A DNA stretch of 62,771 bases from Psammoneis japonica (taxonomy: Eukaryota). How positions within the stretch are numbered: position 1 is the stretch's first letter; every line of letters begins with the position of its first letter. The stretch spans positions 1 through 62,771 of the forward strand of contig QPGO01000268.1 of assembly GCA_008632985.1 (NCBI GenBank), read 5' to 3'. Below are positions 5,537 through 54,300 of the stretch, in pieces. The position numbers and the translations under genes are program-made. Below the pieces are notes generated by a model. The model was not told the origin of the DNA, made no database searches, and saw only the letters and a list, made by a program, of their open reading frames with translations.

Positions 5537-5690
5537 GGAGACACATGGAGACAAACAGAGACAAACGGAGACACATGGAGACAAACGGAGACACATGGAG
5601 ACAAACGGAGACAAACAGAGACAGTGCATTGAGGAGACAAATGTGGAGACTTTTTAGCAAGAATTTGGAGACACAAACAGAGACATTCAT
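5537..5690. repeat. 10-bp minisatellite (ggagacacat / ggagacaaac / agagacaaac)
   Basis: About nine near-perfect units at 5537-5623 and degenerate units to about 5690. Confidence 0.9.
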
Positions 5691-10024: not shown

Positions 10025-10496
10025 ATTCACCCTTTCATTTCTCAGATTCATTTTTGATGCTGCAACACGGTTTCCTCTCGCATGACTTGCTGTGGTTTGG
10101 GTTTTCGGTTTTGTAAATGATGTGACTCGCGACTGTGAAAGACTTTTGCATGAATTCTGTTTCGACTGTTTGCCAATTCATGCCTGTCTTTTGCATGCAG
10201 AGAGCCAACATTTAGAATGCAGTCCTTTGCTTTGCTGGGAGAAAGCTAGAAGTTGTGCGTTGATCATGAAGAAGACTGCTTCATCCTGGAAAGGAACAAC
10301 ACCAGCTCACTCACAAGAAGTGCCCCAAACAATGCCAATGTTCAAGAGCATGTCAACGTTCGAAAGTCTTCAGAATCAACAGTCTGAAGTCAACAGGCAA
10401 CAGAATCTAATCCAGCTCGTAGAATTTACACCGGTCTGTCAATGGCAGCGAAGTTTTTTTTGCTCTTCAAAAATCTCGACACTGAAAACACTTGTC

Positions 10497-10561
10497 GAAA
10501 ATCGGCTTTCGTCACCCACTACATGACACCAAGTTGCAGTGGGTGACGAAAGCCGATTTTC
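10497..10561. repeat. 27-bp inverted repeat with 11-nt spacer
   Basis: gaaaatcggctttcgtcacccactaca (10497-10523) and tgcagtgggtgacgaaagccgattttc (10535-10561) are 26/27 complementary. Confidence 0.9.
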
Positions 10562-11799: not shown

Positions 11800-13400
11800 T
11801 TTTCAAAAACTTTGACTGTGGACAGGCACACATGCACTGCTGACTTGGCTGTTCATTGTTTGATGTTGAAGACAAAATTGTCCATTGACAAAATTGTCAC
11901 ACTGCAGGGCTTGCACATGGAGCTCTGTGGGCACAATGCCAAAAATGCCCCACCCAGGCAACTCAAGGGTGCATGGAGTCCATGAGACAAACCATGGCTG
12001 CAACCCCACCCCCTTGCTGTGGATTCACATTGTGCTGACACTGCACCCACTGCAGTCACTGTTGATGCTGTGACAACTGCCCACCCATCACTGCACACTT
12101 CAACTCTGATGTCCTAGAGCTCATCTCTTTGATCAAGTGCATTGTGGCCTGCATCTCTGTTCATCATCATGGGGCTCACTCCCACTCTGGTTGAGAGGGA
12201 GAATGCAAAGCCAAGAAGAAGAAGAAGAAGAATCTGCAGCACTTCCACTCCAGATGGAACCAAATGCAAGCTGGCCCTTGTTGCCCTTTCCTTTGTTGTT
12301 GCACTTCATTTGAGAGGCAACCAAAGCAAAAGCATGCGCTGTTGGGGCCAACTGAATCACAATTGGAGGCACCATGCTCTCTCCCATTGCCAAGGCTTGC
12401 CTTGCTTCTGCCACAAGATCCAAGACCACCTGCGCAGATTGTTGTCACTGTTCAAGGATGCCTTCCATGGAGCCAGCAGCAGTCATCACAAAATGGACCA
12501 CTTCTCCATCATTTGGGACTCTGGTGCCAGTGTCTTCATCTCCACATGCCATGCAGATTTCAATTGTCCCGCTGAAAAGCCTGCTTGGTCAACCCACCAT
12601 CAGCAAGGGTGCCAAGGTTGCAGGCACGGGGCACATTGTGCGGTCCTTCATTGACTGCACCAGCATGATCTGCACCATCAAGATTCCAGCCTGCCACACA
12701 CTGGATGCAAACATTCAACTGTTGAGTGCTGCAAGTCTTTTGAAGACATGCGACAAAGAGATGATCCAATTTGGCCCACAGTGCCCTGCCTTGGTTGGTG
12801 GCCCACATCCAGATGATGGAAACAATCCGACCAGCCCAACTGGCATCCTGTGTGCATCTCGAAGATCCCAGAAAATCAATTTTTGGATGCAGTTGCCCTT
12901 GCTGCCACACTCACCACCACATCCAAGCACAACAGCAAATCAATGTGTCAATGATTGCCAATGGAAAAAGGGCATTTGTGCAAGTGCACAAACACATCCA
13001 TGGTTGAAGTGCGTTGCATTTCTTGCTTGACCAGGTGCACTCTTCAGACATTGAAGAACACTCCTGGCACATTGTTGTGTCCCCTGCAAATGTCTTGCAT
13101 GAGAAGTTCTCTTGTGCTTGGCAAAACAAGGAGTTTGAAACAATTCTTTGGAAGAGAACAAGTGGAAAAGCATGTGCAACAATGCACATGACAAATGACA
13201 AAAAACAATTGTGCCATGCTGGCTTTTGCAAGGCCCAGCTTCTCATGAGAACTGGAGCACTGGCACACTCTGAGAGCACCCGCTGTCTCCAGATGGCCAC
13301 CTGCAAGATGATGAAAGGGGTCCCACATGTGTGCCAAGTGCCAGCGCAAAACAATGTTGCTGTCCCAGCCAAGGCAAGTTGTTGAATGTTGCACGCAATT
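11800..13400 (+). mobile_element. Heavily degenerate Ty1/copia (CoDi-like) remnant: protease and GAG-pre-integrase
   Basis: FSIIWDSGASVFIS (aspartic protease DSG, about 12500-12540), AKVAGTGHIVRSFID..TIKIPACH..IQLLS, LCHAGFCKAQLLMRTGALAHSESTR (pre-integrase). Frameshifted, boundaries approximate. Confidence 0.65.
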
Positions 13401-14539
13401 GACAGGGATGAAACATTCATGGCATTGATGGTTTGGCGGGCATCTTAAAGACAGGCTGCAGATTTTGGGGCTTTCCCACTGCTCAGATCTCCCACAAACA
13501 CTCAGGCATTCCTGTCAAATGGAGAGGGCGCCACACCCACTGGCACCATGTGTTGTGCTGTGTGGTGATGAATGGATGTGCTTTGTGCCTGGGTGATCTG
13601 CCTGAGCATTGGGCTCCTCAGCCAGGCTCTTGTTTTGCAGTTGCTCACAGGTCCACTTGGTGCCTGTGCTGTTGAAGGTGTGAATGCTGCTGGGGGGCAA
13701 TGTGATCATGAAAAAATTGTGCTGGCATTGAATTTTTTTTTTGCCAAACCTTTTCTCTCTGGTGTTTGACAACTTTGACTGGGAGAGGGAAAGCACACAG
13801 CGCCACCTTGTCAGTGACAGCAGTGTTGACAATTCCAACAAGAAAGCACCCTGTTGTGCATCCAGAATTGGGAATTTGCTGAGGAATCACCTCCAAGCAC
13901 AGAGAGTCGCAACGTCGGAAAACTTGGTCACACTGTCCGTCCATCACCAGGCATCAGAGGTCAAAATCTGCGGCGATGCTCTTTTCGATTCACAAGGCCA
14001 GTGGCGGCTGTCTCAAAACCAAGCTTCAAGCTGCTAGAGAGTAGAACCGATCGTCATCTCCAAGTTGTCTCCCACGCTCAGCATGTCAAACACAACTGTG
14101 GGGAAACATGTCTGTCCACTGTGCCCCCATTCCGGCATCAACACATCGAGGTGTGCTGTCGACACCAAGGTGGCATGCGTGCATCGCAGTCTCTGGACCA
14201 GGCACTTTCCAAGAGGAGACTAGACAAGTGTGTCACAGGTTCATCATCAACATGGATGATCAGGGAAATCTGTTTGACGACATGGAATCAGAGCGGATTC
14301 CCACGTTTGCAGAAGCGCAGAGAACTGAGCACCAGGAACAACAATGGAACGACTTGCTCTTGTCTTGGAACAGAAGCAAGAAGACAACAGTTCAACAAGA
14401 TTCAGATGCCGAGGACTCTGACGATGAAGGTCTTTCAGGCTTGTGTGATGCTGAAGCATCTTCTTGGATTGCCAAACTCGAAAAGCATGACTCTGCAGAA
14501 GGGCCAAGGAATTGCGAAAACTCCGAAGTTACGCCCATC

Positions 14540-15200
14540 AACGCCACTCTAGCATGACGTGGACAAGCACAACTGCGACGAGTCCTGTGAGCCTGCAGCA
14601 CACACATGACACCAAGGTGAGGCATTGTCAAGGAATGAATTTCATTGCTGCCACTTTTTTCACCTTCATGTGCGAAGATGAAGCACTGTGGTTGTTGGCT
14701 GGCATGTCAGTTTTTGTTGGCATTTGCTCTTTTTCCGATGCATTGTTTCTTGCCATTTTTGTTCCTTCTCAAACCGCAGCCACTGTGAATGATCCACCCA
14801 ACCAGATGTGAGGAATGTTCGGCAGGGATGTGCAAGCAGCGCACCAGGTGTTGTGTGTGGCTGACAAACATTTTCATCAGCTTCTACTTCGTCTTGCCCG
14901 GCATTTGGAGAAGGAGAACGTCTACATCATCACATGTGCAACGCAATGGTCGTTGACATTGTACACGAGCTCTTTTCACCTTGATTTAGTGAGTCGCGTG
15001 TGATTTTGTATTCTTGCCGAGGGATGGAAGGTCATCTGCCGCATCATGCTAGCGCTCATGACATGTTCCAACAAACCTTGGAGACGCTTTAGCTTCGAAG
15101 ACATTTTGGCTTGCCTTCACCATCTTTCCGATGTGGTTTCCAGTGAGAAATAAAATCTCAATCGCAAACACACTGCCAGGCATGAGAAGGAGTGGGTGAC
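14540..15200 (+). pseudogene. Rab-GAP TBC-domain gene, C-terminal half, hypermutated
   Basis: HDTKVRHCQGMNFIAATFFTFMCEDEALWLL (GYCQGMNF motif), intron about 14702-14779, LARHLEKENVYIITCATQWSLTLYTSSFHLDLVSRV, LAEGWKVICRIMLAL, FEDILAC..RKHTARHEKEW. Contains stops and frameshifts. Confidence 0.8.
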
Positions 15201-15735
15201 GAATGATGCGGTCCTCAATTCGATCCATTCGTCTCACGGCAGCATTTTGACGCAATCAAGGCCAGCTTCAAAGACATGCTCGAGAATTCTGGGGGTGTGA
15301 TCCGCTTGGCACACAACTTGGAGCTGCCATGTGTGAGAAGGAGTGGGTGAAGATTGTGCGGTCCTCAATTTGACTCATTCGTCTCACTGCGGCATTTCAA
15401 CACGATCAAGGCCAGCTTCGAAGACATGCTCGAGAATTCTGGGGTGTGATCCGCTTGGCGCATTGCTTGGAGCTGCACTGGGTGAAGCACTTGGTGCTGG
15501 ACTCAAACTTGAAGAAATTTTGGCTCACTTTTGCCATCTTTCCAGTGTGATTTCCAGCGAGAAAATAAATCTCAAGCGCAAACACACTGCCATGTATGAG
15601 AAGGAGTGGGTGAAGATTGTGCGGTCCTCAATTCGATTCATTCATCTCACTGCATCTGCTGGACCCTGACACCTGCATGTCGACGCAAGATCAAGGCCAG
15701 CTTAAAAGAAATGCTCGAGAATTCTGATTGGAGAC
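15095..15735. repeat. Imperfect triplication of the TBC 3' end and downstream sequence
   Basis: Core gagaaggagtgggtga..gcggtcctcaatt..caaggccagctt..atgctcgagaattctg starts at about 15184, 15335 and 15598. The TBC coding part is duplicated at about 15097-15195 and 15511-15609. Confidence 0.85.
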
Positions 15736-15739
15736 TTGT

Positions 15740-16850
15740 TGTTCAGCTGCTGCCAGGTGCTGGACTTGCACTTGAAATCGTGGATGGACTGCTGGGCCCT
15801 GCTGCGCAGGTTCTGGCCTCTTGCTTGGTGTTGCCAATGGTGTTGCTTGGAGCAGGACTGGCACCAGGGGGTGATCCACTTGGTGCATCACTTGGAGCTG
15901 CACTGGGTGAAGCACTCCATGCTGGACTCAAACTTGGAGGCAGCATCATCTGCATTGGTGCGTCACTTGTTGCTGATCTTGCGCTGGGAGCATTGCTCGG
16001 TGTGGAATTCAGAGCAGGGCTTGCACTGCCAGGTGATCCACTTGGTGCATCGCCATGAGCTAGACCGCAACTTGGTGACACACTCAAAGCATCGCTTGGT
16101 GCTGGACTTGAACTTGTGCTGCTTGGTGCTGGACTTGTGCTGGGAGCATTGCTTGGTGCAGAACTCGGAGCATGACTTGAGCTCGGTGACTTGCTTGGCA
16201 CCGGACTGCTGCTTGGAGCTGCACTGGGTGCCTCACATGGCTCCGGACTTGAACTTGGAGGCACCGTTGTGTGCGTTGGTGCATCAGTTGGTGCTGGACT
16301 TGTGCTGGGAGCATTGCTTGGCGTGGAACTTGGAGCAGGACTTGCGCCAGGTGATTGACTCGGCGAATCACTTGGCGCCGAAGTGCTGCTTGGAGATGCA
16401 CTGGAAGTCTGCTCTGTGGAGGACTGCGACTCGGTGGTCGGGTGAACTCCAAGCAAGGCACCAACTCCTGCCAAGCCTCAGTCTAGCACCGAGTGACTCG
16501 CCCAACGAGTCTTGAAGCAGCAGCCCCATCCAACGCGAGTCACAAACGCGCGCGACCGGCCTCCAAGTGTGAGTCCTGCCAGCGAAACATCCAGTTCTGT
16601 CCTGAGCAGCAGCACTGCACCGCTGAGGGTTCTGAACTCGGAGATGAACTTGGTGCTGGACTTGCACTGGGAGAATTGCTTGGTGCCAAACTGGGAGCAC
16701 GGTCTGCACTTGGTGTTCCACTCGGGGCTTCACTTGGAGCAGGGCTGTTTGATGGAGCACTCCTTTCGTTTGATGTAAAGATTGAGCGCAAGGCCCAAGA
16801 ACATGCCAATGAGATGAGCAACAGAATTCCTGACGGCATTGTCTGCCGCA
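15740..16850 (-). pseudogene. Pro/Ser/Thr-rich (APSxxPS repeat) secreted or cell-surface protein remnants
   Basis: ORFs 16540-16926 (signal-like MPSGILLLISLACSWA, then APSNSPAPSEAPSGTPS) and 15743-16474 (SPSQSPGASPAPSSTPSNAPS). A further fragment lies at about 17380-17560. Disrupted and TpA-depleted. Confidence 0.6.
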
Positions 16851-18312
16851 TGCTTGCCAGAAAGAAAAAGAGCAGTGTGGTGTGAAAACAGAAACCATCA
16901 CATTTAAGTGCGCAATGACATCGCAAGTGCTGCGGCCGTCATCGCAGTCCATTGACGCACGCACAGAAAATGAACAACACACCAACAAAGATTGCTGTGC
17001 TGCACTTTTAGCATTTCTACTTCTATCGTAAAAGTTCAAAGCATGTTGCAAAAAATTGAAACACGCCAATGTCAAAAGCAGCTGTTAAAATCGGTTGCGC
17101 AGGATGACATTGCCTCAAAAGCGCCATCAGAAGATGGATCTAAAGCTTTTTCATGTCTTCAGGTGATGGGGATGGAGTGAAAAAGTGCAGCCTGAAAACA
17201 ACATACGAGAACAGATGCCTCAGTCAAAATGATGAGGAAAGAGATGGCTCGCGGTCCAGTGGCTCTTGGCAATGGCAAATCCCATCGAAGTGCATCTTTG
17301 GTCGATTCTCTGTTTCTTTCCTTGTGCATCTTACGAGATTCATCATTCATGTTCATCGTCACAGCACGAATTGCTTCCAAACATTGCTTGGTTCTGCTGA
17401 TGGTGCTTTTGATGGCACGTCACTGTGAGCTGCACTTGGCATTGCAGAGGGAAATGCCGAGGGCTCCGTCAAAGGGTTGGTCGTCACATCACCAGCTGGC
17501 CGAGTGGAAGGATCAGTCAATGGGACTTTGCTGATTGGCAAAATCGGGACAGCTGACAGGCAGGAGCAACGTTGACTCCAGGCCGGAGACACGCATTCGA
17601 CCGGCCTCCGGCCTCAACTGGCAACACCTGCGCCGCCGAGACAACACTTCGTGCAAGCAAATGAGTTGCATGACTGCCAAACAAGAGAAGACTTTCTATC
17701 ATCCAGAGGAAGGGCAAGCCATCCTCGGCGATCGCCTGCATTCCTGCTTGGCAAACAACAACACATCGTGCGAGACACGAGACGTCGAGTTGAATGTGAT
17801 CCAGAACGAAAACGAGCGCGAAAGAAGAAAGCTGCTTTCGGGGAGAAGTTGTGTCGTGACCGTTGCTAAATTTCTCAATCACTATCATTTTTGTGTAATA
17901 TTGTAGTATTAATACCATCATGTCGTATGTAGAACATGGGTCGGAAGTTGGTAGGCACTTTCAAAATGAAGTCATCGGGTCATCAGCTCAGTCTCTCCAC
18001 GTAAAACATGCGGAGAAAAGACAAAATTGATTAATCAACAGTATCCTGCTATTTATCACAGTCATTATCCCATCAGAAACAAATAACAACAGAATCCAAT
18101 TGAGGCAATGGTTCCTTGAATGTCATTTCGGGTCATAATGTCCATCAAAGTTGGTCACGATTTTTGGAAGCAAACTCAGGTCGAAATTATGCGCATCCTA
18201 CATGTTGTGTTGCTTCCCTTTCGAATCCATTACACCTACATGTTAATTAAAAGCATTTATACTTATTTTGTATCATTACATGCTCATCAGTGCCTCTGTT
18301 GTAAAAAACACA

Positions 18313-28958: not shown

Positions 28959-31072
28959 TCAAGCGTTCGAAAATTGCAATCTGCTGCCTTGTTCGTGTCG
29001 TGCATTCACTTCCGCCATCGTCTGGTTGCTTTCCGGGGTATAGACAGCTGGCGGAGCTTCACCATCATCAAAGATATGGCTGGATACTATATCCTCGAGC
29101 ATATCTCTGCAGTTAATGACACGCCTAGCTTGATACATAGCATGTATGCTCCTGCAAGCTTTCGATGAAGCGTATAGATTTCTTCGGGAGGAGGCCTGTG
29201 ATAAGCAATCAAGACGGTCAGCTGTGTACATGAAACAAAACAACGAATGTGTATAGTTCTCAGTCACAAAGACGTACGTAAGACGATGCTCCAAGAACGC
29301 GGATGTCTCTCGTGATAGCCTTGAAGTAATGTTGGATCCTCTAAAATCAAAAGGTTTGTGAGATCGGAAGGGTTCGCCAACTGTAAAGCCACTCGCCTTA
29401 TGCGCTTCCACCATGATTTCATTTTCATCTCCTGTTAAGAATCCCAATTTGTGAGAGTAGTGCATAATGGTTTCGGCATCTTGATTTGCAGCTGCCCAGA
29501 CAATTCTCAGATAGCCATCGACAAAGTCTTTGGAGTATTCTCTAGCAGCTCCAAAGTCAATCAAGTAGGTTGTGCCAGTTCCAACGTCATACAAGAAATT
29601 CCCCCAGTTCGGATCCGTTTGCTTTAGAAAAATAAGCAAGCGCAGTCAGTATTGTTGCGTTGTTTACCGACAGTCTCAAAGACGAGGTGGGCCTAATTGC
29701 CAGAGTTACTCACCATGAAGCGCCACACAAACAACTCCTGCATCGTGAGATACATGATTGTACGCCCAATTCGATTCTTTTCCTCTTGATTCAAGTTTGA
29801 CACTTTGTCAATGGTCCCTCCTGGTGCGTATTCACTCGTCAAGATTTGTGCAGTTGAAAGCTCCGGTATGACATTTGGCACGGCAAATCGATTTTCTTGC
29901 AAAACCTCATCTTGATGAACGAGTTGTCGAAACCGTTGTTGGTTCTCCGCTTCTCGCGTATAGTCACATTCTTGCTTCAGCTCTCCTCGTCCGACTCGGA
30001 TCACGTTTCCGAGAAAGAGCCCTGGTGGTGCCAAACCCGTCATGCCAATAAGAGTCTGAAGGTTGTTTAGATCGGAATCAATGGAATCGGCGACACCGGG
30101 ATACTGCACCTTTAATACCACCCGTTTACCACTGTCTTTCAAGGTTCCCAAATGCACCTGCCCCACCGAAGCTGCCGCAAACGGCTTTTCATCAAACATT
30201 TCCAAATGCAATTCCCGCTTGTTTCCAAGGTGTGTTTCCAACTGTTCCTGTAGTTGGTGTAGAGGCATTGCATCTGCACCTTGTCGAACTTGTTTCAAGG
30301 CCCGAGAGAGTGCAGGTGGTAGCATGGATTCATCTTGAATACTAAGCATTTGTCCAAGCTTCAAGGCTGCACCACGCATCCGGCACAGCGTAGCAGAGAG
30401 GCGATCCGCATTGGCATCCGTAACAATAACCGATGAATCCGGCGAAGGCGATTTCTGAAACAATCTCGAGGCTGCTTCAGCAGCTGTTCCTACAACCAAT
30501 CCTACTCCCAAGGAGGCAAAGCCCATGGCGCGTCCGACCCGTGTTGATGGAACGGGACGACCCTCCTCAAGCCGTCGATGAATGGGCTCTTTGATATGAT
30601 TTGCATTATTGGAAGCGACATTTGTCGTGTCATCCTTTTCCGTGTCGGCCTGGGCCAGAGGAGCTTCTTGATCGCCGGGTGCTTTTCGAATTGCGTCAGT
30701 GTTCGTTGCGCCATTCACACCTTTGAAACTTTCAGTACTTTCGAGCGGCATATCACCATTTGCTGATTCATTCGTTGACCGCAACTCGCCCGGTGGTGCT
30801 TCCCTTGTCAATTCCTTGCTAGCAATGTTATGTTCATCAAACCCTTTCTCTGCTTTTGTTTTCAAAGTTTTGAGATCATCATCACTAGTCATGACATTGA
30901 CTGCTTTTGTAGCTGCACGAATGTTTGCCAATAGCTCAACAGCATGCTGTGCCCCCCGACTGGACGCATCGGTCACTTGGGTGGCAGAAAGAGTGGATAC
31001 TTCGGATGCAACCAGTTTCAAGCCCGTAGCAACACGCATCCAACCCGCAGTCGCAGCTTTTTTCGAAGCCAT
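28959..31072 (-). CDS. COQ8: ABC1/UbiB atypical kinase COQ8/ADCK3-like
   Basis: LCRMRGAALKLGQMLSIQD, PFAAASVGQVH, VVLKVQYPGV, FMQTDPNWGNF, LIDFGA, TPPPEEIYTLHRKLAGAYMLCIKLG. Introns 29622-29713 and 29196-29277. 1-nt deletion near 29121. Confidence 0.92.
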
Positions 31073-33106
31073 TTCCTATCAACGGAGGAATGAAAGTCTT
31101 GTTATACTATTGCAACAGCAACTTGGAGCGGAGCGGTTTGAGAATGTGCGCCGCCTATCGTCGTTTTGTGCGTGGTGCGTGGTCGTGTTGTTGCGTGGCG
31201 GGAAGCATGCAAGACTCAGAGATGATGAGTCATCAGGTAATGGGCTCAAAAATAGTTTCTTGTCACCTTCCGTCGGTCCGACAGCAAGGCCCTAACTGTT
31301 GGTGCTCAGCACACAGCATCTTTGCATCTTGTTTCTTTGAAGGCCAACTCATCCAAGTGATGATGACTTGCAAACACCCCGTTGCACAAATCTGGCTGCA
31401 AAGCATCAAACGAAAGGCGTGCCAACAAATGACCCCCAGTTTGCGTCGATGGCTCTCGGCAAGTTGTGGATCCCATGATGAAGATGGGCTGTGGCCTTGT
31501 GGCATGTTGCCACAGCACCAGTGTGTGCAGTTCATTTGGCAGCCACTTTCTTTTTTCTTGCCAGATTGTTTTTCCCAGAAGAGTTTGCATCAACAAGCTG
31601 CTGCAGCGACATCCTCATGGGGCAGCTGCGCCAACGATGCTTCACAAGAAAAGTGTGTCTTGCAGGATGATGCTGAATGCCACAGCATGGCTGTCAATGT
31701 TGGCAACACACTTGTCACAAAGAAAAAGCACATGAAGGTTGATTTGGTGTGTCTTTTGACTTGCAATGTGGGTGGGGCAAATGTGAACTTTGAAGGGAGA
31801 AGAAGAAGATGTGCTGTTGGGTCCAGACAATCCGGTTGTCTTTGTTGTTCATGGGGGTGTTGGAGGAGCAATGTAGACATGAGATGCAAAAGCAAGAGTG
31901 TTGTCAGCAAAGTCAACAAAGCGTGCATTGAGGTGCAGATCGAAGATGTGCAAGTGGAAGAGCACAATGAGTGGGGGGTGGAAAATGCAAGAGAAAGGGC
32001 TGGGTGAGTGCACAGCTGCAAGCATTTGCTTTGATTCCATCTGTCTGTTTTGCTGTGCTCACATTTTTGATTTTCACAATGCAAAGCAAAACAGATCCTC
32101 TGCAGCTGGGAAAAATCAAGCTGAGCTGCATTGAATGGCATGTTTGAATCAGCTCTTCATCAAAAGCTCTCATGGCAAGTCCAAAGGCCGCCACAATTCA
32201 GTCAATCCCCACATTGAGAGCCGTTTTTGTGAATGATGTGTTTTTATTTGTTCTTGCTCATGACACTGGCATTTTGCCATTCACTTTTGGAGTGTGCCAT
32301 GGAGCAAATTTCTGCCTTGCACCAGACAAAATTTCTGCCTTGCGCCGCACATTGAAGCAGGTCCACCCAGGCTGTCTGGGATCAGCTGTTGATTGGGATC
32401 TCTTGTGCATGCTCTGAGATGAAGAGCAAAAGAGGAAAAAAGGGGAAGAAAAGATGATGCACATGGTGAGGAACAGCTGTTGGAGGTGACAAATGGCCTT
32501 GCCAATTGTGGTGTTGTCACTGAAGAGGGCAGAACATCAGCCTCTCCACATGGTTGTCAGGCCCACACCAACACCAATGAGCACACCAATGCCGCCACAA
32601 ATGGAGCCTGGGGTGGCTTCCATTTGCATCAGATTTCACCTTGGTGCTCATTGGCTCACCCATTGAGTTGCTTCTCATGCTGTGGGGTGCTCACGCTGTC
32701 TTTAACAAAATGGCAACATTGGCCAACAAGAGCAAAGCCAATGAGGACAAGGATGATGTTTGCTGTGATGACTGCATTGTTTTGCCTTTCACATTGCCAC
32801 CAGGAGGTGTTTTTAACATTTTTTCATCCTGGCAGTGATTCTTTGGTGCACTGAACTGCACTTTTTCTTTTGGCTGCAAAGTGCAAAACAAATGTTTGCA
32901 TTCTGCCTCCCAAATGTCTGATTCTAGAAGGGTCAGATGCTCATTTTCAGGTGAAGGCTTGCACATTGACAGGGGCATTTGCCAAGAAAACAAACTGTGC
33001 CTGGTCCTTCCTTGGTGACTCAGGTTGCAGAACAGGCTTTGGCCTTGTCATCAGAGCTCACTCAGGACCTGGCTGATGTTAAAGCCAGTCCAAAGATGAT
33101 GTGCTT

Positions 33107-33684
33107 CACCCAAAAAGGTTCCCATTGGGAGGACAAGCCACCATGTTGATTGGCGACTGCAGCCAGGAGCAATTGAGAGTGAGCACATTTTGGCTGTCAT
33201 GGCTCACTCAATCTGCTGCTTTGTCAATGTGGATGTCTTGGACTTTTTTCTGATTCTTGCAGCAGAGAAGAACAAAAGCAAGGTGTTGGAAGTGGCGCCA
33301 TCAATGCCCAAGCACTTTTTGATGACAAACAGCTGACTTCATTGCCAACGCTGCAGTCGTTGGTGCTTTGCACCTTTGCCACAAGAGTCAGTTGTCACCC
33401 AAAAAGCTTCTCATTGGGAGGACAAGCCACCATGTTGATTGGCGACTGCAGCCAGGAGCAATTGAGAGTGAGCACATTTTGGCTGTCATGGCTCACTCAA
33501 TCTGCTGCTTTGTCGGTGTGGATGTCTTGGACTTTTTTCTGATTCTTGCAGCAGAGAAGAACAAAAGCAAGGTGTTGGAAGTGGCGCCATCAATGCTCAA
33601 GCACTTTTTGATGACAAACTGCTGACTTCATTGCCAACGCCACAGTCGTTGGTGCTTTGCACCTTTGCCACAAGAGCCAGCTGT
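33107..33684. repeat. 289-bp tandem duplication
   Basis: Unit starting cacccaaaaag at 33107 and 33396, with about ten differences by eye, mostly transitions. Confidence 0.95.
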
Positions 33685-33889
33685 TTAAGAAAAACAACAT
33701 TTCATCCTGAAAGGGCATTTTCCCCATTTTCACCCAGCACCCCAACAGCATGCAGGGCCAACTGCGTTCTGCTCACTTTTGCAGCTTGGAGGCAAGGATG
33801 CACACAGCTGCTTGTGCAAAGCACAACAACTCTGATGCAATTCATCATGCCTTTTCTCTTTGGCTTGACCGCTTTCACTTTTCACATTG

Positions 33890-35300
33890 CAAAAAAGCCC
33901 TTCCTTGCCATCTTGAACTTCAAAGGCAGCAGACCACATCAACACCACATTGGCTCTGGCAAAAGAAAGTTTGGCTGCGCCAATGCTTGGGTGCTTTGCC
34001 ATGAGACATTGCATCAAAGCATTGCATTGAATGGCAATTTCATTGGAGTTGATCTTTCTTGTTTGGTGCAGAAACAATCTGCATTGAAGATGCAGCATGG
34101 CGTGATTGCAGAAGGGATGCAACGTGCTGTGCAGCAACTCCAGCCACCACTTCTGCAGCACCACATCTGCCAATCAACAGGTTGGGTGTTTCACCACAGC
34201 AAGCAACAGTGCCTTGGCCCAATTGACAACAAGCAGTTTCAACTCCACCAGGTGCATCCACAAGAAACCATGCCAGAAGTGTCAAATGTGGCATGACTGC
34301 ATTGAAAAAGCTGTTGGAATCACAGACACCTGGCACAGGTGATGCATCGTTTCACTTGAGGGTTTTGTTTCAAACACTGCTTTGGCCCCTCTTTGGAAGC
34401 TTCACAAGATGGGAATGGCCAGCAAGTTTGGACAAACAGAAAAATCACAAGAAATGCATCTTGCATGCCATGGGATGCTGGTCAAAAAGATGTCAACAAA
34501 AAGCCAGTTGGTGCTGGCACAACTTGAGCTCACCTTTCCCACAGATTTGCTTGGATTGACAGCTGTTGAGCAAATCCCTGCCACCCCTGCTGCCATGGAG
34601 ACATGTCCCAATTCCCAATCCACCAGCTGAATCATTCTCCCCAGAAGACAACCTGAGCTCAAGAGCTGAGTGGCTTGTTTGAACAAGGCTGTGTTCTCAT
34701 CAAGAGCTGTCCCTTCCTGCCAAGAAGTGAAGCCCAGATTTGCAGGCCATCACTCTCTGCTTCTCATGCTGCTGCACTGTTTTCCACATTGCCAGCCCAT
34801 GATCTGACCTCACACTTGTTTGCTCAAGCCTCTGCTGTGTTCTTGTGGTTCTTGCAAGACTGCAAATCATTCACATGTGTTGTTTTCTTGTGCTTGAGAC
34901 TGGGCTCTATTTTGGCCGGCACATCATCTGCTGTGAAAGTGCTCAATTTTTTGTTCTCTTCTTTTTTGTGGCTTTGATTGTTTTGCAATGTTTTGGCGCT
35001 GGATCGTGCGCCCCAGCATCACATGACAACTCTCGCCAAGATGCAAAACAGACCACGCAAAGAGAGAAAAGGACAGAGGGCCCATGGGCAAAGAGAGCAA
35101 AGTCAGTGATGAAGCAACAACAGCCAAGAGATCATGGCCGCAGGTGCCAAAAATCAAAACTTGGAAAGCAACATGAGATTGGAAGCCACAATTGCCGGGT
35201 TTGTGCTTGTTGAGAAAAAAAAAACAAATCCAGCCACCAGTGCACTCCAGCCAATGTAGACAACCACCACCAATGAGATGGGCTTGGGTGCGCTCACACA
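33890..35300 (-). pseudogene. Hypermutated paralogue of the methyltransferase-like gene at 37522-38989
   Basis: ATQLLSSG..ELGHVSMAAGVAGICSTAVNPSKSVGK vs AIQFLNSG..GSGHVSMAMGMAGIQSTVVDPRESVGK, and CNALMQCLMAKHPSIGAAKLSFARANVVL vs YIDLLQYLMAKHPSIQASKLPFDGANVVL. Same intron position. The 5' limit is approximate. Confidence 0.85.
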
Positions 35301-36226
35301 AAAGCAAACCATGTCGTCAGTGCTTTGTTGATGTGTGTGCTTGTCAAGAAGAGTGACAACAAACAAGACAACATGTTTCACTCACTGTCATTTCCTGCTT
35401 TGCTGACTTCACTGGAGCTGCAAACACACAGACAGACATGTTGACAATTGTTGCACTGCAAATGTGTGCAAAAATCATCTTGCTGAGAACACGTGCACTG
35501 CAAGACACAGTCTGCCAGAGATGCGGTGAGAGGTGAGAGGTGGGAGGAGGGAAGACACATTTGAAAGCCTCAACATTTGCAGGAAAGTCACCATGCAAGT
35601 TGAAGCTCTGACATGCAAATGTGCAAAACTGAAAATGGTTTGACAGGCAAACAATCAAACTGCTTCCAAGGTGATCTGAGCATGCCAAGGCTTGAACAAA
35701 GCTTTGTTCGCCCCAAAAGAACGAGTTGCAGCCCGCCAGGCATTTCACAACAGATCAACACAGCCAGGGAACTCGTGAACTCAAACGTGAGTGACTCGGG
35801 GGACAGAAGGACAGACACTCCCGACCCTGCTTGATCGATTTATTCATGGATCGCTCCCCCATGTTCGTTGGTGCTTCTTTGTGCTTTGGCAATAGATGTT
35901 GTCTTTTGGTCTGACAATGCGGGATGCTGAATACTCTGTATAGAAGACAGGAACACTTTCGTTAAAAACGGGAGTGGAACACATTTCGCGACAATGCAGT
36001 GCAAACACGACCAAAATTATCGTTGCGGGCAACATTGCGTGCAGTTATCAGCCCTCTATCGATAACGCGAAATGTCGCGCGAATTTGCTGCATGATGCGA
36101 AAAGGTTCATTTTTCGCGCATGCGGCATTGGCTTATTTCGATTTTCGGAAAGGCTCACAATCTAAAGAGAAGCAAAACAACAAAGGACTATTCACATCAG
36201 CTAAACAACAACAAAAGAAAAAAAGC

Positions 36227-37378
36227 ATGAAGATTATAATTCCGATTCCTCTCTTGGCCGCTTGCTCTCACGCCTTCTCAACTACAAACGCTCCAAGCAT
36301 GAGCCAACGACCCTACGTGATCTACTCTCGCACTCCTCAGCAGCTCCCTCGAGAAAGCATGGTCGTCCTCGAACCAGCGGTTATCAACAAGAAAATCGAA
36401 CCATTGGCTGACTGTGCCATTATTGATGTCAATCCCAATGCGGTCCCTATCAACTGGCAAAAGCTGCTCCGTGAACGCGTATCCGCATTTGGAAAGGCCA
36501 CCAAGCGCGAGGCCAAACTCACGTGGGGCGTTATGCAGTCCGACGTACTGAGTACCGTAATGCTTGGAATGTCCTGCACCACCGCCTTCTGCTTTGCCCA
36601 ATCATCCACTGGACTTGGAGCGGCAAAAGTTGCCTCCACCATGATCAAGTCCTTTGTCTGGTTTTGCTTGTACGGATATCACTTTGACATTGCAAACCAA
36701 ATTGACGGGGTAGAGGAAGATGCTCTCAACAAAGACATTCCAACCAAGAAGAATCGACCTCTTGCGTCTGGTGCCATGTCCATTCAAGGTGGAAAGGTCC
36801 GTTACGGAGTGTCGGGTGCGCTGTATCTTGTCGCGTCTTTGGCGATGGGAGGCACGCCCCTTGCCCTACAAGCAGCTTGGTGGATGCTATCAGTCTATTT
36901 GTACAATTTTGCCGGGTGGGGTAGCCACTTTGCAACCAAGAACTACTATGGCATGTCGGCTGGCTCTGCAGCAATGTTGTTGGGAGCTCGAGTTTTGTCT
37001 GGAGACGTCCTTTCCAGTGTTGTACCTCCAATTCTGGCTGCATGCTACATTGGCATGATAATGGATATTCAAGACTTTCGTGATGAGAGAGGTGATCGCG
37101 CCAGTGAACGCAAGACAACTGCTGTCATACTTGGCGTCAAGAAGGCTAGGAAGGTTTGGGGGGTTCAGATGGTGGCCATGACAGCTCTAGGTGCACGCTT
37201 GGTTCGCAAGAGCCTCTCCGTCTGGCCCGACAGCCTAATTGGTGCTGGTGGATTGGCTCTCCTCATCAGTACCTTGCGAGGAAAGACAGTGAAGGACGAC
37301 AACAAGTCGTACAAAAACTTGATCTTGTATGGCTTCCTGGTGTACTTTCGCTCTGCCTTTTGGGCCCAAGCTTTTTGA
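36227..37378 (+). CDS. UbiA-superfamily membrane prenyltransferase / terpene cyclase-like protein, probable plastid targeting
   Basis: Intronless, 383 aa. Motifs NQIDGVEED..NRPLASG and QDFRDERGD..RKT, multiple TM helices, N-terminus MKIIIPIPLLAACSHA-FSTT (signal peptide followed by Phe). Confidence 0.85.
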   Translation: MKIIIPIPLLAACSHAFSTTNAPSMSQRPYVIYSRTPQQLPRESMVVLEPAVINKKIEPLADCAIIDVNPNAVPINWQKLLRERVSAFGKATKREAKLTWGVMQSDVLSTVMLGMSCTTAFCFAQSSTGLGAAKVASTMIKSFVWFCLYGYHFDIANQIDGVEEDALNKDIPTKKNRPLASGAMSIQGGKVRYGVSGALYLVASLAMGGTPLALQAAWWMLSVYLYNFAGWGSHFATKNYYGMSAGSAAMLLGARVLSGDVLSSVVPPILAACYIGMIMDIQDFRDERGDRASERKTTAVILGVKKARKVWGVQMVAMTALGARLVRKSLSVWPDSLIGAGGLALLISTLRGKTVKDDNKSYKNLILYGFLVYFRSAFWAQAF

Positions 37379-37521
37379 ATCTTGATGAATTCCGGGGTTC
37401 TTGAGAGTTAGAGTTTAAAGTGAACAAAACGAATTTTGTGATTTTCCGTTATTCACCCAAAACCTTAGGCGCCCAGCAATCTTCGTCGTTCCACCTTGTA
37501 GAACATGTTACTACCTTGCTT

Positions 37522-38989
37522 TTATTCGCTTTCAGATCCATGTATTTCAAAGGTAGACCATAGTACCACGTTGGCTCCGTCAAATGGAAGTTTGGATGCT
37601 TGGATACTTGGGTGCTTCGCCATGAGATATTGTAGCAAATCAATGTATGTACTAACCGTTTCGTTGGAGTTGGTCTTTTTTCTGTGAGGGAACAATCTAC
37701 CGAAGACGCAGCACGGCACGATTGCAAAAGGGATACGACACCGTACCGCAACGTCAACCACCGCGTCTGTAGCTTCGTCGGGGTGGAGAGCGACAATGGC
37801 GCTGCATCTACTAATCAACGAGTCAGATGTTTCGCCACAGTAAGCAACAGAGCCTTGGTCTAACTGACGAAACTTTGTATCAACTCCGACAGGCATGTCC
37901 CCAAACCATGCCCGTAGTGTTGAATACGGCACGACTGCGTTGTCAGACTTGTCGGAATCGGATGTATCTACAGGAAAAGTATTATTTCGTTTGAGGGCTT
38001 TACTCCAAATCTTTCGATCCCTCTTTGGAAGCTGTGTAAGGTGGGAAACGACAACTTGCGTGCTGTGAGACACGGGTCAAAGACGGTAACAATACGTGTT
38101 GGTGCCGGGCACAACTTGAACTTGCCTTGCCCACAGACTCTCTTGGATCAACAACTGTCGACTGAATCCCTGCCATTCCCATTGCCATGGAAACGTGTCC
38201 TGATCCACCAGCGGCGTCAATCACCCCAGAACCCGAGTTCAAGAATTGAATAGCTTGTCTGCGCAAGTCTATATTCTCAACAAGAGCCGTTCCTTCCCAT
38301 GCCGGAATGCAATTTAAATACAAGTCAGCACTGTCTCTTGTCATCGGATACTGGGTATTGTATAGTTTTTCCATGATGATATGAATCAAAAAGTTTGTAA
38401 TGATCTCGCCCCGTATTCGTTTGCTCAAGCCTCCACCATGTTGTGGTGACGAGAGTGAATCGTCCGCATGTTGATTTCTTTTTTTCTTGCTTTGAGATTT
38501 TGTTCCATTTTCAGTTTGTGAATTATCTGCTGTGAGAGCTTTTGATTCGTTCTGCTTTGCGCTTTTATTTGTAATGGAAAGGTACTTTTCTTGCCACGTT
38601 TGGCACTGGGTCATGTCCCAACATCTCGTATCGATCGCTTGTATTTTCCCCTTTGTTTGTGAAATAGTATTTAACTTCAGGACGTATCGATCTTGCTTCC
38701 ATTCAGTCGCACACCCTTCACTGAGACTTGTCCACGTGCCGTCCTTTATATGAAGCAAAACACCCAGCTTAAAGAGGCGCCTACACCACGAGCGGAGTTC
38801 TTTGTGTTGTTCGTCCGCTTGCTGCTCAAACTGAAGTCGCACAATCACGTGCCTCCTCTCGGCTTTTCCAGATTCTTCTGATGACAAGTGAAGAATTGCA
38901 TAGTGTGCTCGTATTGATCTGCTAAACAATACACCTCGAATAGAACAAGCTGTCTCTGCGGCGTTTGATAAGTGCGAAGATGATGCCAT
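37522..38989 (-). CDS. Conserved hypothetical SAM-methyltransferase-like protein
   Basis: VIDAAGGSGH (SAM motif I-like), STVVDPR, IVALHPDEATD, PFAIVPCCVF. GC-AG intron 38032-38125 joins VGK to LPKRDRK in frame. Confidence 0.75.
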
Positions 38990-39216
38990 GGTTAATAGTG
39001 TATAGAACAACTTCGCAACGTAATATGAGCAAACTCTTTATACAGTAGTTACGGAGTGGTACCTACTAGAGAGCACTGCGTCTCGCACGCCATGGTGGTG
39101 CGTCGTTTTTTGGTGCCAAAGTTGAATGTGCTTGACAAATTGAAAATCACCGGACGACGGTCATTACACGGTATGGTAGAGACTTTCAGTTAGTCCGGCC
39201 GTTCGCAGATCCCAAA

Positions 39217-51394: not shown

Positions 51395-54300
51395 TTTGAA
51401 CAGCCCATTTCGTGGGGAGGCATTGCTAGGCTTCTGTATAATGCTTTGTGGACTCCATACTTCTCGTCTTTTCCTCCTTTATTTATTTGAATGCACTTAC
51501 ACTCGGCGGCGTCACGACCGCCTCCCTTATGTGGAGGGGAATGCGATTCGAAACCGTTGGTTTTTTTGCGTGTGGCGTTTCGAGTCGCCGGAAATCTGAA
51601 ATGGACTTGAAAACCACAAGAAAAACGATGGAACAGCACAATGTAAAAGGTATGTTCAACGCTGTCTTAAAATGCGTACAGCTTTCAAGTTGTGCGCCGG
51701 TCACTCATTTTGTCGCTGATCTAGTAGGCTACCACTTGTTTTGCAGGACCAGTTGCTGCTGTTAGCCACGGCTGCTGGAGACGGCTGATTGCGCTCTTAG
51801 GAACCTAGCTTCTTCTTCCGTCTTGCTGCGAGTCGTCTGCGCCGTGGATCTGAAGGGTGCATTATTTGAGATTCCCACGGCGTAGCAGAAACCGCCATGC
51901 TTCGTTCTAGGGAAAGACTCTAGAGGCAACCAAGCAACTCTAGAAGTCTAGTGTACTCGGTGGCATCAGAGCAAGAAGATCAAACATCAAGATCCCGATA
52001 GTGTTGCTGCTCAGCTACAGACGACAAGCTCTACAAGTTTCTACACAGGTCAGAAGTTGCCACCAGCATCTCACACGCAACGTCAGAATCCCCATACTAC
52101 ATATTCCTATCAACTGAAATCTTGATTCAGTGACAAAGTTGTCTCTTGCTAACGTCAAGTATCACACTTTGACTGTTCTGTTGTTGGCTCCTTTTCACCT
52201 TCGCTGTACCGGCGTGAGACAGCCGGTGCTTTCTCCGCTTTGTCAAGTGTCGCACTCATGGAAAGTCAAGAGGCAAGCCGATTTGACATAAGGCTGTTGA
52301 AAACGGTATTCATACTCCGAAGCTTCGGAGGGCAAATATTTGAATACTGCGGGTGTTCGACAATCTTCATGTGACCCTTGGTGGAGAGCTCAACCGTCAA
52401 GTTGGCTCATGTGATATGGTACACATGATTGAGTTCGGAACTAAGCAAATCGTTCGCACCTGTACGATATTGCGCAAACAGAGAACACTCGACGTTAGGA
52501 CAAACACCATTGCTGCGTCGTAATTTTTGTCTCAAGAGTCGATAGACCTAGTTTAAATTTTTTTCCAGGCGTTGTCTTGCTGTCGTCCAAAAAATCTCTC
52601 CAACTTACGTAGCCCTGCTCTCAGCCGTAGAGGACTGGGCCCTGTGCCAGGTATAACTCGCTTCAAATCTAGAGTAGCACGCGGCCCTAATGCCAGCGGG
52701 ATAGCTGTGGCACCAGCAGCACTGGCTTTCCTGTTTGGGTTGGAGGAGGAAACTTGCTGGTGATGAATTTGATTGCTCGACTGACAGAGGACAGAAAAGA
52801 GCATGCCGGGCGACAAACTGAACCAGGGCAGATGCGCAACCCTCCGGGGCAATTCACATCAACGCGGCAATGCAGCTGACCAAACCGCCACTCTAGATCG
52901 TCATCTTTGCATTCCAAACTTGATCGCTGTCCATCGTGTCATGAACACTGACTCCTTTTTGCTTTGTCGCCCTTCCCATTTCTGCAGTTGGCCATCAGAA
53001 TGAGCCCCTTGTCTCTGGCCTCCTTCAACTCTTCCTTTGTTTTGCCACACATGTGCGCCAGATGCCTCATCGCTCTTGCAGATGCCAGCTTGTCCAAGCA
53101 ACATCTGGGTTTGAGAGAAAATGCTTCCACATCATCTTTCCTGCCACTGTTGGCAGGAACAAGTGTGGGGGGTGAGGGATTTTGGTCTGGGATGGTGTCC
53201 CTCCCATCTGGCATTTCCTCCAGAGATGGCATCTTGGCATTGTTTTCTGCTTGTGTGTTTCTCATGATCTGTGTGCTCTGCACACTTGCAAAACACCAAG
53301 CAGCATGTGCCAGTGCAGTCTTCCAGCACCCCACATGTTGCCCACTCCATTTTGATGCAGTGCTTGTGGAAAGATTCTTTCTTCAGTTCCCTGCTGGCAT
53401 TGTTCCTCCTCTTTCTCTTGTTGTTTGCCTTTGCACCTTGCCCTTCCACATTTCACAAATTTTGCCCTCTTTTTTCTTGGGGCATGTTGAGTGTTGAGTT
53501 TAGACCAGCACTGTCTTTGCAGCCCTGTCGTCGCTGTTGTCAAGGACCTTGTCATTCAGAAACTTGCACTGTCTGAACAAGACATTCTTGATGCATTCCA
53601 GCTCCAGGTGGGACCTTGCACCACTGCACTGTGACATCAATGGTTTTTTGGATCATGTTGCATGTTGCGCACATGCATTTCTACATGTGACATTCTACAA
53701 AATTGTTTCATGCCCCCCGTTTTGCGAAGCCAAAGGCTTTCTGTTTTCAACATTTGTGAGAATGAAAATGCACTGGGTGTGTTCTCGAATGCCTGCAGAA
53801 CATGCCCGGGCAAACTGTCAATGATGTGCTTCAAGCACAAAGGAGGAGATGCATTCGCAAAATTGCCTCTTTTTCTGTTGGCGATCATTCACATTTTCAT
53901 TGCAGCACAAATTTGCTGCGGAGCTCGCACGTCGAATTCTGTGGGCCCCCAATGTCACACGGAGTCCCACCCAGGACTGGAGCCCATCTCTTGCAGCAGT
54001 TCTGCAACACAATCTTGTCCCTGTTGTTCATTTTGTCACTGTGTTGATTCTTCTTTTGTTTCTTGCTTGTCATGTCACACACCCTTTTTCTCACATGAAA
54101 ATGAAAATTGCATGATGTGTTCATTGCAACAATTGTTTGCACCACAAATGTTGTTTTCACAACCAAAGCTCAAACAAAACAAGAAAAGGCAAAACAAAAA
54201 CAGCCATGGCTTTCATGGCACATGACGGCACCCTTTTTACAACCTTGTGGGCAATTGCAGGGCATTGCAAGGACCCCATCATTGGACACAGTCAACACAC

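Follow-up and report, generated by a model that had tools for sequence, protein, structure and literature searches.

The window analyzed here is the whole stretch of 62,771 nucleotides from contig QPGO01000268.1 of Psammoneis japonica (assembly GCA_008632985.1). Near its middle lie a COQ8/ABC1 kinase-like gene carrying an ABC1 domain (28959-31072, minus strand, in two reading frames) and a UbiA prenyltransferase-family gene (36227-37378, plus strand), both unmutated. Between these two divergently transcribed ubiquinone-pathway genes lies an unstranded island of silent, non-genic DNA from which the TA dinucleotide has been nearly erased (31294-35840). About a quarter of the island is recognizable, as a dead, DNA-level copy of the neighboring methyltransferase-like gene, and the remainder is of unrecognizable origin. 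The dead partial copy (33902-35036, minus strand) extends from codon 124 to the stop, keeps the intron region and has in-frame TGA stops, with a weak alignment continuing on to 33675. Its parent gene (37522-39010, minus strand) comprises exon 1 (38126-39010), exon 2 (37522-38031) and a GC-AG intron (38032-38125) placed by comparison with homologues, which occur in diatoms and in some cases carry PF13679. The island also contains a tandem duplication of a 289-bp unit (33106-33683, plus strand), whose two copies show 10 differences.

A Pfam search of the 41 open frames of the island yielded no family at cut-off and no viral or transposon domain, and neither a tRNA nor an Rfam family was found across the whole window. 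A transition-tolerant search of the rest of the island against the remaining window gave no similarity (tiles 160-206, shuffles 155-202), and the island edges displayed no terminal inverted repeat, long terminal repeat or target-site duplication as hallmarks of insertion. A COQ8 relative (45% identity) occurs at a single metagenome locus, L001, which lacks both a low-TA tract and any neighboring UbiA or methyltransferase gene; no ancestral intergenic state can be read there.

An earlier, sequence-only reading of this DNA had counted nine TA dinucleotides in 31321-35820, and the recount returned exactly nine (31874, 32245, 32703, 32814, 32925, 33080, 33686, 34908 and 35257), where about 178 would be expected. 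Over 31294-35840, T is followed by A at 9 of 1169 sites, compared with 15.25% in normal segments (178 expected; binomial log10 P -68.7). TpA is depleted about 20-fold, to 0.002 of dinucleotides, while CpA and TpG (fractions of 0.114 and 0.1125, against 0.072 each in the flanks) are enriched 1.6-fold; the G+C content of the island is unchanged at 0.475. The scarcity of CpG noted in that reading was also borne out, with a fraction of 0.0117 compared to 0.058 in the flanks (about 5-fold depletion), and an observed/expected ratio of 0.07-0.33 in the island core; the outermost 140-165 bp at either end are of normal CpG density.

The island edges are sharp and non-gradual, to the resolution set by the spacing of TA. 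As the sequence-only reading had described, the last flank TA stands at 31293 and TA resumes at 35841, followed by 35893, 35932, 35939 and 35941. Changepoint analysis of TA density favored a step over a gradient at both borders, with maximum-likelihood steps between 31293 and 31297 on the left (1.92-lnL support 31253-31352) and between 35840 and 35841 on the right (35755-35932). Relative to the step, sigmoids lost 2.2 and 1.5 lnL at a scale of 100 bp and 3.4 and 2.7 lnL at 200 bp. The gene starts, which had been called untouched, are so; the 221 and 386 bp that separate them from the island hold 8 and 14 TA, a normal density. Both the step-like limits and the normal TA density of genes 220-390 bp outside agree with the proposal that a mutator is confined to a defined domain. 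The 9-mer GTTGGTGCT, of which the window contains 8 copies (0.75 expected), lies close to both island edges. As an edge signal it was rejected and taken to be compositional, one copy being GTTGGTGCC in the parent gene and TG-rich words being expected in converted DNA.

To assess whether the edges could be contig joins, we used a public run (X1) with separately assembled contigs, which may be the same sample as the assembly and in which 86% of sampled words were present. X1 contigs are continuous over the left edge (29500-33152) and the right edge (35799-37500), so the edges are not joins peculiar to this assembly, and X1 pieces over the island are mostly at least 99% alike. No joint spanning the island, such as an empty-site allele would give, was found in the X1 contigs, the only joint being a 32-bp skip at 35766-35799. 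For four loose X1 contig ends the window offers no further match (best score 13/30), and they were therefore assigned to short repeats elsewhere. X1 contig depth is alike in island and flanks (56-59, figures that are not copy numbers), and two further runs (X2 and X3) contained next to none of the stretch.

Two other TA-erased islands occur in the window. The larger one (3689-17864, left edge at about 3680-3689) contains hypermutated HSF, TCTP and RabGAP-TBC remnants and is interrupted by a TA-normal patch bounded by inverted repeats (10408-11009), which is either young or a sign that position alone is insufficient for erasure. The third (52706-62771, the window end) has a Ty1/copia element in its right part, the gag and pol frames of which (55863-62513, plus strand) are TA-poor (0.0075) and CpG-normal (0.070). 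The search for copia long terminal repeats found only a 36-bp repeat (55467-55502 and 62475-62510), and as the window cuts the 3' end of the element, no dating from a repeat pair can be made. Two of the other edges proposed in the sequence-only reading, near 17865 and 52705, were recovered between 17864 and 17867 and between 52702 and 52706, while the one near 3905 was misplaced, as this edge begins at about 3680 and three stray TA follow at 3882-3903.

The losses of TA and of CpG do not share the same limits. With bounds chosen post hoc, the data already in view, the left margin of the island (31294-31460) has no TA against 6.8 expected and 6 CG against 9.6 expected, and the right margin (35700-35840) has no TA against 5.7 expected and 8 CG against 8.1 expected. 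Between them lies a core in which both are lost (31461-35699, 39 CG in 4.2 kb). Such TA-free but CpG-normal margins are present at all five edges in the window, and the overhang of TA loss past the CpG-poor core measures 140-165 bp at this island and 245-800 bp at the remaining three edges. Judged by these margins and by the TA-poor, CpG-normal copia element, TA loss and CpG loss are two separable processes.

Comparison of the dead copy with its parent provides a direct view of the changes. None of the 36 parent TA survives in the island copy (17 became CA, 12 TG and 7 other dinucleotides; 29 by a single transition), nor does any of the 50 parent CG (20 became CA, 18 TG and 12 other), against background transitions of 12-18% per site. 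The parent gene itself has normal TA and CG density, with 28, 16 and 22 TA per 500 bp. In a comparison with 30 homologues, 92 of the 137 differing codons favor the parent, 19 favor the island copy and 26 tie, and of 121 conserved columns, 107 agree with the consensus in the parent and 61 in the island copy. By this homologue comparison the island copy is the derived one. Because the intron region is present, the island copy is a DNA copy and not a retrocopy. Counted by hand along the pseudogene, the CA and TG outcomes form 15 strand runs, with about 15 expected and thus no clustering. This reference copy covers approximately 25-30% of the island, and elsewhere the direction of change rests on composition. 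Taken together, pyrimidine-purine steps amount to 0.2401 in the island and to 0.2394 and 0.2454 in the flanks, and the three island parts are identical in make-up by this dinucleotide mass balance. Given these equal totals inside and outside, the composition of the whole island is that of ordinary host DNA in which TA and CG have been converted to CA and TG.

The flanking bases influence which TA are lost. Surviving TA in low-TA DNA comprise 10 RTAY and 67 YTAR, compared with 462 and 231 in normal DNA; for A sites, the odds ratio of TAY versus TAR is 0.33 (p = 2e-19), and the order of 3' preference is T > C > A > G. Pseudogene outcomes are CA:TG 7:1 at RTAR, TG:CA 3:1 at YTAY and CA:TG 6:7 at RTAY, the test of RTAR versus YTAY being small (Fisher p = 0.067). 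Of the 29 conserved Tyr columns in the copia pol frame, 4 still read Tyr, 14 read Cys, 5 His and 6 other residues (Cys or His at 19/29). Over the pseudogene and copia data together, Tyr replacements amount to 17 Cys and 6 His, and a purine precedes in 4 of the 5 His cases in copia. As read from these sequences, TA erasure prefers T-A-pyrimidine, which equals R-T-A on the opposite strand; since TA is self-complementary, the pattern is blind to whether A or T is the targeted base.

Several observations bear on how long the process has acted. Swaps between CA and TG separate parent and island copy at 19 of 146 sites, whereas for other dinucleotides the count of double transitions is 22 of 719 (p = 6e-6); the excess of swaps points to long-lasting activity. 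One difference between the 289-bp copies is a TG/CA pair, which suggests independent hits after the duplication, and island TA 34908 is aligned to CA in the parent. In X1, the edge-most TA at 31293 reads CA, a single-site polymorphism that could run in either direction, and 6 of the 13 in-island differences from X1 are CG versus CA or TG. The edge variant and the excess of swaps are hints of present-day mutator activity.

We therefore favor, with a probability of roughly 0.8, a region-confined mutator that acted in place after the DNA came to lie there, converting TpA to TpG or CpA, together with CpG decay. In the proposed process, the mutator would make A:T to G:C changes at TpA on both strands, best at T-A-Y, and a slower decay of CpG to TpG or CpA would act beside it, as expected for methylated cytosine; the CpG half is probably attributable to cytosine methylation of the domain. 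The TA process would be the faster one, with a slightly wider reach and a step-like end spanning no more than a few tens of bases; its action would be long-lasting and would spare the parent gene and the flanking promoters. The most likely guide would be a silent-chromatin state rather than sequence repetition. The sequence-only reading had offered inserted or duplicated DNA, or a chromatin mark, as what defines the domain. Duplication is indeed found within the island, as the dead gene copy and the 289-bp repeat, but it is not a sufficient trigger, because TA and CG remain normal in the parent copy, which lies 3.5 kb away. This, together with the differing limits of TA and CpG loss and the edge TA that reads CA in X1, fits a chromatin-type domain with local spill better than a strict insertion limit.

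Among possible chemistries, adenine deamination in DNA by an ADAT2/TadA-like enzyme is somewhat favored. In tRNA editing, the edited A34 is, as far as known, always preceded by U33, and an enzyme of this kind would account for the TpA rule through that order. The same domain logic could act through another chemistry, in which a thymine of TpA modified or oxidized by a TET/JBP-type enzyme (5-hydroxymethyl- or 5-formyl-uracil) mispairs with G to give T-to-C changes. T-to-C after a purine would leave the same pattern as A-to-G before a pyrimidine. Nevertheless, 5-hydroxymethyluracil normally pairs with A, which counts against this chemistry, and we consider it unlikely. The available text of a report on dinoflagellates describes transposon silencing by this base (PMC11572971), a point in favor of modified thymine; against it, the sole study of de novo events, as far as its available text goes, proposes adenine deamination, as a proposal without proof (10.64898/2026.01.13.699255).

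Less probable still is a RIP-like sensing of repeats, in which duplicated DNA is recognized by homology and then mutated. The island does carry a duplicate of a nearby gene and a tandem duplication, and the other islands contain a retrotransposon and remnants of gene families. RIP, however, mutates both copies of a duplication, whereas the 1.1-kb parent copy is normal here; furthermore, no second copy of the margins, or of about 70% of the island, is detectable in the window, and the chemistry is opposite, as RIP makes TpA. Editing of RNA by an ADAR-like enzyme, or of cDNA before integration as in retroviral hypermutation, is very improbable even though one island is a retrotransposon. The mutated gene copy retains its intron region, both strands are affected (17 CA : 12 TG), the margins are mutated too, and such sites have come to differ, after integration, between the tandem copies and between the two alleles. 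ADAR also favors a 3' G, unlike the 3' preference observed here. A 5' U preference, given as typical of ADARs in the Discussion of 10.64898/2026.01.13.699255, would fit such editing. We give equally little credence to the absence of any mutational footprint, whether as foreign DNA natively poor in TA and CG, which the roughly 70% of the island without a reference copy would allow, or as a sequencing or assembly artefact, which is conceivable since base modifications can give systematic miscalls on some platforms, given that the pseudogene changes are polarized by homologues, the mass balance holds in all three island parts, and the X1 contigs, though possibly from the same sample, were separately assembled and resemble the island closely apart from the 13 differences.

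To our knowledge, there is hardly a known case in which chromosomal DNA is naturally edited, in a targeted way, from A:T to G:C. A saturated footprint in a diatom-like genome would widen such a defense system beyond a chlorarachniophyte, to a group of great ecological weight. The locus yields a testable motif (T-A-Y), a domain rule based on position instead of repetition, and a nesting with CpG decay, and the motif would narrow the search for the enzyme, with relevance to base-editing work. The footprint deletes TAA and TAG stops and makes no in-frame stop, so that dead elements retain long open frames, and conversion of TA and CG masks homology from DNA searches. Because the footprint hides homology in this way, the gene remnants here were revealed only by transition-tolerant alignment, by a chance match between the proteins of open frames and, for the other islands, by a Pfam search of their open frames.

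Among known systems, ADAR acting on double-stranded RNA and APOBEC3 acting on cDNA likewise produce clustered, context-specific transitions against selfish DNA, but they act on one strand before integration, whereas chromosomal DNA is affected here on both strands and in non-retro sequence. The CpG decay of methylated transposons explains 38 of the 50 lost CG, is confined to the island core and is still polymorphic (the 6 of 13 differences from X1), yet it accounts for the CpG half of the signature only and is slower and narrower than the TA process. RIP, known from Neurospora and other Pezizomycotina, resembles the present case in riddling mobile or duplicated DNA with dinucleotide-specific in-place transitions, and RIP domains are sharp-edged, with some spill into the flanks. 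RIP, however, turns CpA into TpA and thereby creates TA, which is destroyed here, and it mutates both duplicates, whereas the parent copy is untouched here. It also creates stop codons, while TA to TG or CA, because of the genetic code, cannot create an in-frame stop. With regard to chromatin, the available text of one report describes repressive histone marks on transposons of another diatom (PMC4504042).

The closest likeness is to Bigelowiella natans, for which a preprint, in the text available, describes de novo A:T-to-G:C hypermutation, restricted to TpA, in giant-virus and virophage DNA that is integrated and silent (Mettrop et al., bioRxiv 10.64898/2026.01.13.699255); a literature search for TpA hypermutation in diatoms found no report, and this preprint, in its available text, was the only one found in print. 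According to that text, mutation there likewise strikes TpA alone, on either strand, to give TpG or CpA; it keeps to defined silent regions and leaves the remaining genome normal, and low-TpA/high-CpA+TpG clusters and transposon domains are present also. The words 'CpG', 'trinucleotide', 'context' and 'diatom' are absent from the main text of the preprint, the supplements of which may bear on flanking-base preferences. The host there is a rhizarian and here a diatom-like stramenopile, the targets here include a host-gene duplicate and unrecognizable, apparently non-viral DNA, and erasure here is nearly complete (TA at 0.002 of dinucleotides, compared with 0.033 in their NCLDV region, as given in the available text). 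In addition, TA loss is nested here with CpG decay and shows a 3'-pyrimidine preference, and de novo events were measured there, whereas the present evidence is a footprint alone. As a tentative proposal, diatoms may carry a chromatin-guided T-A-pyrimidine DNA base editor, most likely an adenine deaminase derived from ADAT2/TadA, that is continuously active on silenced DNA. Such an editor would kill genes by missense alone and never by new stops, would reach at least a nucleosome past the methylated core, and could slowly annex neighboring host DNA and genes. Being common to a rhizarian, it would represent an old genome defense of the SAR lineage and the mirror image of fungal RIP.

The tract between the COQ8/ABC1 gene (28959-31072, minus strand) and the UbiA prenyltransferase gene (36227-37378, plus strand) is almost free of TA, and a recount returned exactly the nine TA dinucleotides in 31321-35820 that the sequence-only reading had reported, with the final left-flank TA at 31293 and TA back at 35841, as that reading also had it. 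Within this island (31294-35840), 9 of 1169 T residues precede A compared with 15.25% in normal segments, and 178 TA would be expected against the 9 observed (binomial log10 P = -68.7). Two-state segmentation over the whole window yielded four low-TA tracts (3689-10406, 11014-17864, 31297-35887 and 52706 to the window end) with normal DNA between them. A step model placed the left island edge between 31293 and 31297 (support 31253-31352) and the right edge between 35840 and 35841 (support 35755-35932), and the earlier description of sharp edges was borne out over a gradient, as gradual models were worse by 2.2 (left) and 1.5 (right) lnL units on a 100-bp scale and by 3.4 and 2.7 on a 200-bp scale. 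The edges are not assembly joins, because contigs assembled from X1, a public sequencing run that is possibly of the sample behind the assembly, cross both unbroken (29500-33152 and 35799-37500). One X1 contig, whose depth of 32 is about half that of its neighbors (58-64), skips 32 bp at 35766-35799, probably because of a heterozygous deletion located 40 bp inward of the right edge.

CpG is likewise scarce in the island, as had been noted, at about 5-fold below the flanks, and CA and TG each occur at about 1.6 times their flank frequency. Both neighbors are real genes of the ABC1/COQ8-type and UbiA-family, and they are untouched as described, with gaps of 221 bp and 386 bp between start codon and island containing 8 and 14 TA, a normal density. 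The two divergently oriented genes belong to ubiquinone-pathway families, and the island lies between them as if in a once-shared promoter region; the COQ8-UbiA pairing is absent from L001, a related metagenome contig with a COQ8 relative.

Self-comparison revealed a 289-bp tandem duplication in the island (33106-33683, 97% identity) and a match of 33944-34717 to 37565-38297 at 66% identity. A transition-tolerant alignment widens this match to 33675-35036 against 37301-38642, firm from about 33902, with transitions accounting for 274 of the 373 substitutions. The parent is a methyltransferase-like gene (37522-39010, minus strand) for whose product 88 relatives were found at E <= 0.001, the best at 42% identity; the named relatives are diatom records, and PF13679 is present in three relatives. 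Because the copy aligns through the parent intron, placed at 38032-38125 by alignment to relatives, it was made from DNA and not from mRNA. This partial copy (33902-35036, minus strand) is missing the first 123 codons and has in-frame TGA stops. With transitions forgiven, no similar sequence was found elsewhere in the window for the remaining parts of the island (31297 to about 33700, and 35040-35840), and Pfam searches of their 41 open frames gave no match at cut-off.

All 36 parental TA are lost from the island copy (17 to CA, 12 to TG and 7 otherwise), as are all 50 parental CG (20 to CA, 18 to TG and 12 otherwise), compared with 12-18% transitions at other sites. With 30 homologues as an outside reference for the polarity of these changes, the 137 differing codons favor the parent in 92 cases and the island copy in 19, with 26 ties, and at 121 conserved columns the consensus is matched by the parent in 107 and by the copy in 61. 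Conserved tyrosines changed from TAT to CAT, TAC to TGC and TAT to TGT, and conserved arginines from CGA to CAA and CGT to TGT. Since transitions leave the purine/pyrimidine pattern intact, the share of pyrimidine-purine steps should persist if the island is converted ordinary DNA; it is 0.2401 in the island versus 0.2394 and 0.2454 in two normal segments. The gain of CA and TG matches the combined loss of TA (0.040 to 0.002) and CG (0.058 to 0.012), and the left, pseudogene and right parts of the island have an identical make-up with G+C constant at 0.475. These measurements demonstrate that, within a step-edged domain, TA and CG were converted directionally and in place to CA/TG, with both strands affected.

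RIP senses homology and mutates both copies. Such a mutator is not seen here, because the parent gene, 3.5 kb from the island, has 28, 16 and 22 TA per 500 bp, normal CpG, and residues that agree with the family consensus. Of the proposed confinement to defined domains, the step-edged domain stands, but duplication as a sufficient trigger does not. Inverted repeats of 27 nt (10434-10460 and 10894-10920, 89% complementary) bound a TA-normal patch (10408-11009) within a low-TA island, and a 27-nt hairpin (10497-10561) lies inside it. The patch resembles an unmutated small DNA transposon, and either it is young or position alone is insufficient; in Bigelowiella natans, TpA hypermutation is active in some lines only, according to the preprint of Mettrop et al. 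(bioRxiv 10.64898/2026.01.13.699255).

The same 14-kb low-TA island contains a TCTP (translationally controlled tumour protein) remnant (9610-10113, plus strand, Pfam E = 1.8e-17), a copy of a host-type gene and not a transposon, with Cys or His at the Tyr positions of solved TCTPs. An HSF-type DNA-binding domain remnant lies over two frames at 4311-5402 (minus strand, E = 5.8e-8) and a RabGAP-TBC domain remnant at 14491-14808 (plus strand, E = 5.7e-6), so the islands contain several dead host-type genes. Degenerate tandem repeats at 15097-16750 in this island (units of about 150-400 bp, 74-88% identity) are open in several frames, Ser/Pro-rich on the minus strand.

TA loss has outpaced CpG loss and also extends further. 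A Ty1/copia element (55863-62513, plus strand) is poor in TA (0.0075) with normal CpG (0.070), and at 29 columns with Tyr in at least 70% of aligned homologues (41 in the alignment) it has Tyr at 4, Cys at 14, His at 5 and other residues at 6. Most other residue classes are at least 75% kept, those poorly kept besides Tyr being Ile (14/29), Thr (19/37) and Met (7/11). As this element is TA-poor yet CpG-normal with its conserved Tyr mostly replaced, TA loss came earlier and CpG loss later. Hypermutation, with Tyr at 0.3-0.5% of residues, has left its frames for gag (858 aa) and pol (1331 aa) open; conversion of TA to TG or CA makes no in-frame stop, and dead elements can therefore pass as intact genes in annotation. 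A 36-bp direct repeat (55467-55502 and 62475-62510, 97% identity) brackets the coding region; the sides diverge past it, and no ordinary LTR pair is discernible before the window end.

In space, too, TA loss runs ahead of CpG loss. Each of the window's five sharp edges has a margin that has lost its TA but keeps CpG at normal density: 3689 (801 bp; TA 5 observed and 32.5 expected, CG 43 and 46.1), 17864 (601 bp; 2 and 24.3, 36 and 34.6), 31297 at the island left (167 bp; 0 and 6.8, 6 and 9.6), 35840 at the island right (141 bp; 0 and 5.7, 8 and 8.1) and 52706 (245 bp; 1 and 9.9, 11 and 14.1), with P values for these margins indicative only, as their bounds were drawn after data inspection. The margins fit a TA mutator domain slightly wider than the presumably methylated domain, and they also fit a domain that creeps outward, the margins being newly annexed DNA. 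The outermost left-flank TA, at 31293, reads CA in X1 contigs, and 4 of the 18 differences between the window and X1 fall within 120 bp of the left island edge, which favors some creep of the domain.

A preference for a 3' pyrimidine is evident in TA loss. RTAY occurs 462 times in normal DNA and 10 times in low-TA DNA, compared with 231 and 67 for YTAR, and ATAT, found 109 times in normal DNA, accounts for none of the 153 surviving TA in low-TA DNA. With each strand's A counted separately, T-A-Y is rarer than T-A-R among survivors (odds ratio 0.33, p = 2e-19), and relative survival by 3' base is 0.30 for T, 0.77 for C, 1.48 for A and 1.81 for G. Unequal re-creation does not explain this bias, because the precursor words (NCAN plus NTGN) are similarly common in all four classes in old islands (1038-1206). 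Two smaller tests point the same way. Outcomes in the pseudogene are CA:TG 7:1 at RTAR and 6:7 at RTAY, and TG:CA 3:1 at YTAY (RTAR versus YTAY, Fisher p = 0.067 in a small, polarity-resolved test). Tyr codons, which are always T-A-Y, became Cys in 17 cases and His in 6 over the pseudogene and copia sets (p = 0.035; small test), and 4 of the 5 copia Tyr-to-His cases come after a purine.

CA and TG are swapped between parent and island copy at 19 of 146 sites, compared with 22 of 719 sites for double transitions in other dinucleotides (p = 6e-6). Most simply, an ordinary mutation would create a TA or CG afresh, and conversion of either strand would follow; one such transient is visible at 34908, where the island has TA and the parent CA. 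One TG/CA pair differs between the 289-bp repeat copies, and 6 of 13 in-island differences from X1 are CG versus CA/TG.

Diatom transposon CpG is methylated, and the CpG part of the process would be 5-methylcytosine deamination. We consider adenine deamination in DNA the most likely basis of the TA part; a less probable one is a modified thymine in R-T-A, from which an identical pattern would result. The tRNA A34 edited by ADAT2/TadA always lies 3' of U33, and the natural site of bacterial TadA is U-A-C; this context would be consistent with the TpA rule and also with the pyrimidine preference. Silent chromatin is the most likely guide, since position, not repetition, decides the targets. Transposons of another diatom carry H3K9me2/3 and H3K27me3 (PMC4504042).

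Our literature search on diatoms and TpA depletion found no report besides the Bigelowiella natans preprint, in which TpA-only A:T-to-G:C changes appear de novo in integrated viral DNA with a rate near 6e-7 per site and generation and an ADAT2-like enzyme is proposed (10.64898/2026.01.13.699255). Its main text makes no mention of flanking-base context (10.64898/2026.01.13.699255). The island described here lies in a different lineage, and its victim is a duplicate of a host gene whose parent was spared. To that precedent it adds near-complete erasure, TA loss nested with CpG decay, a T-A-Y preference, and signs of long-lasting action.
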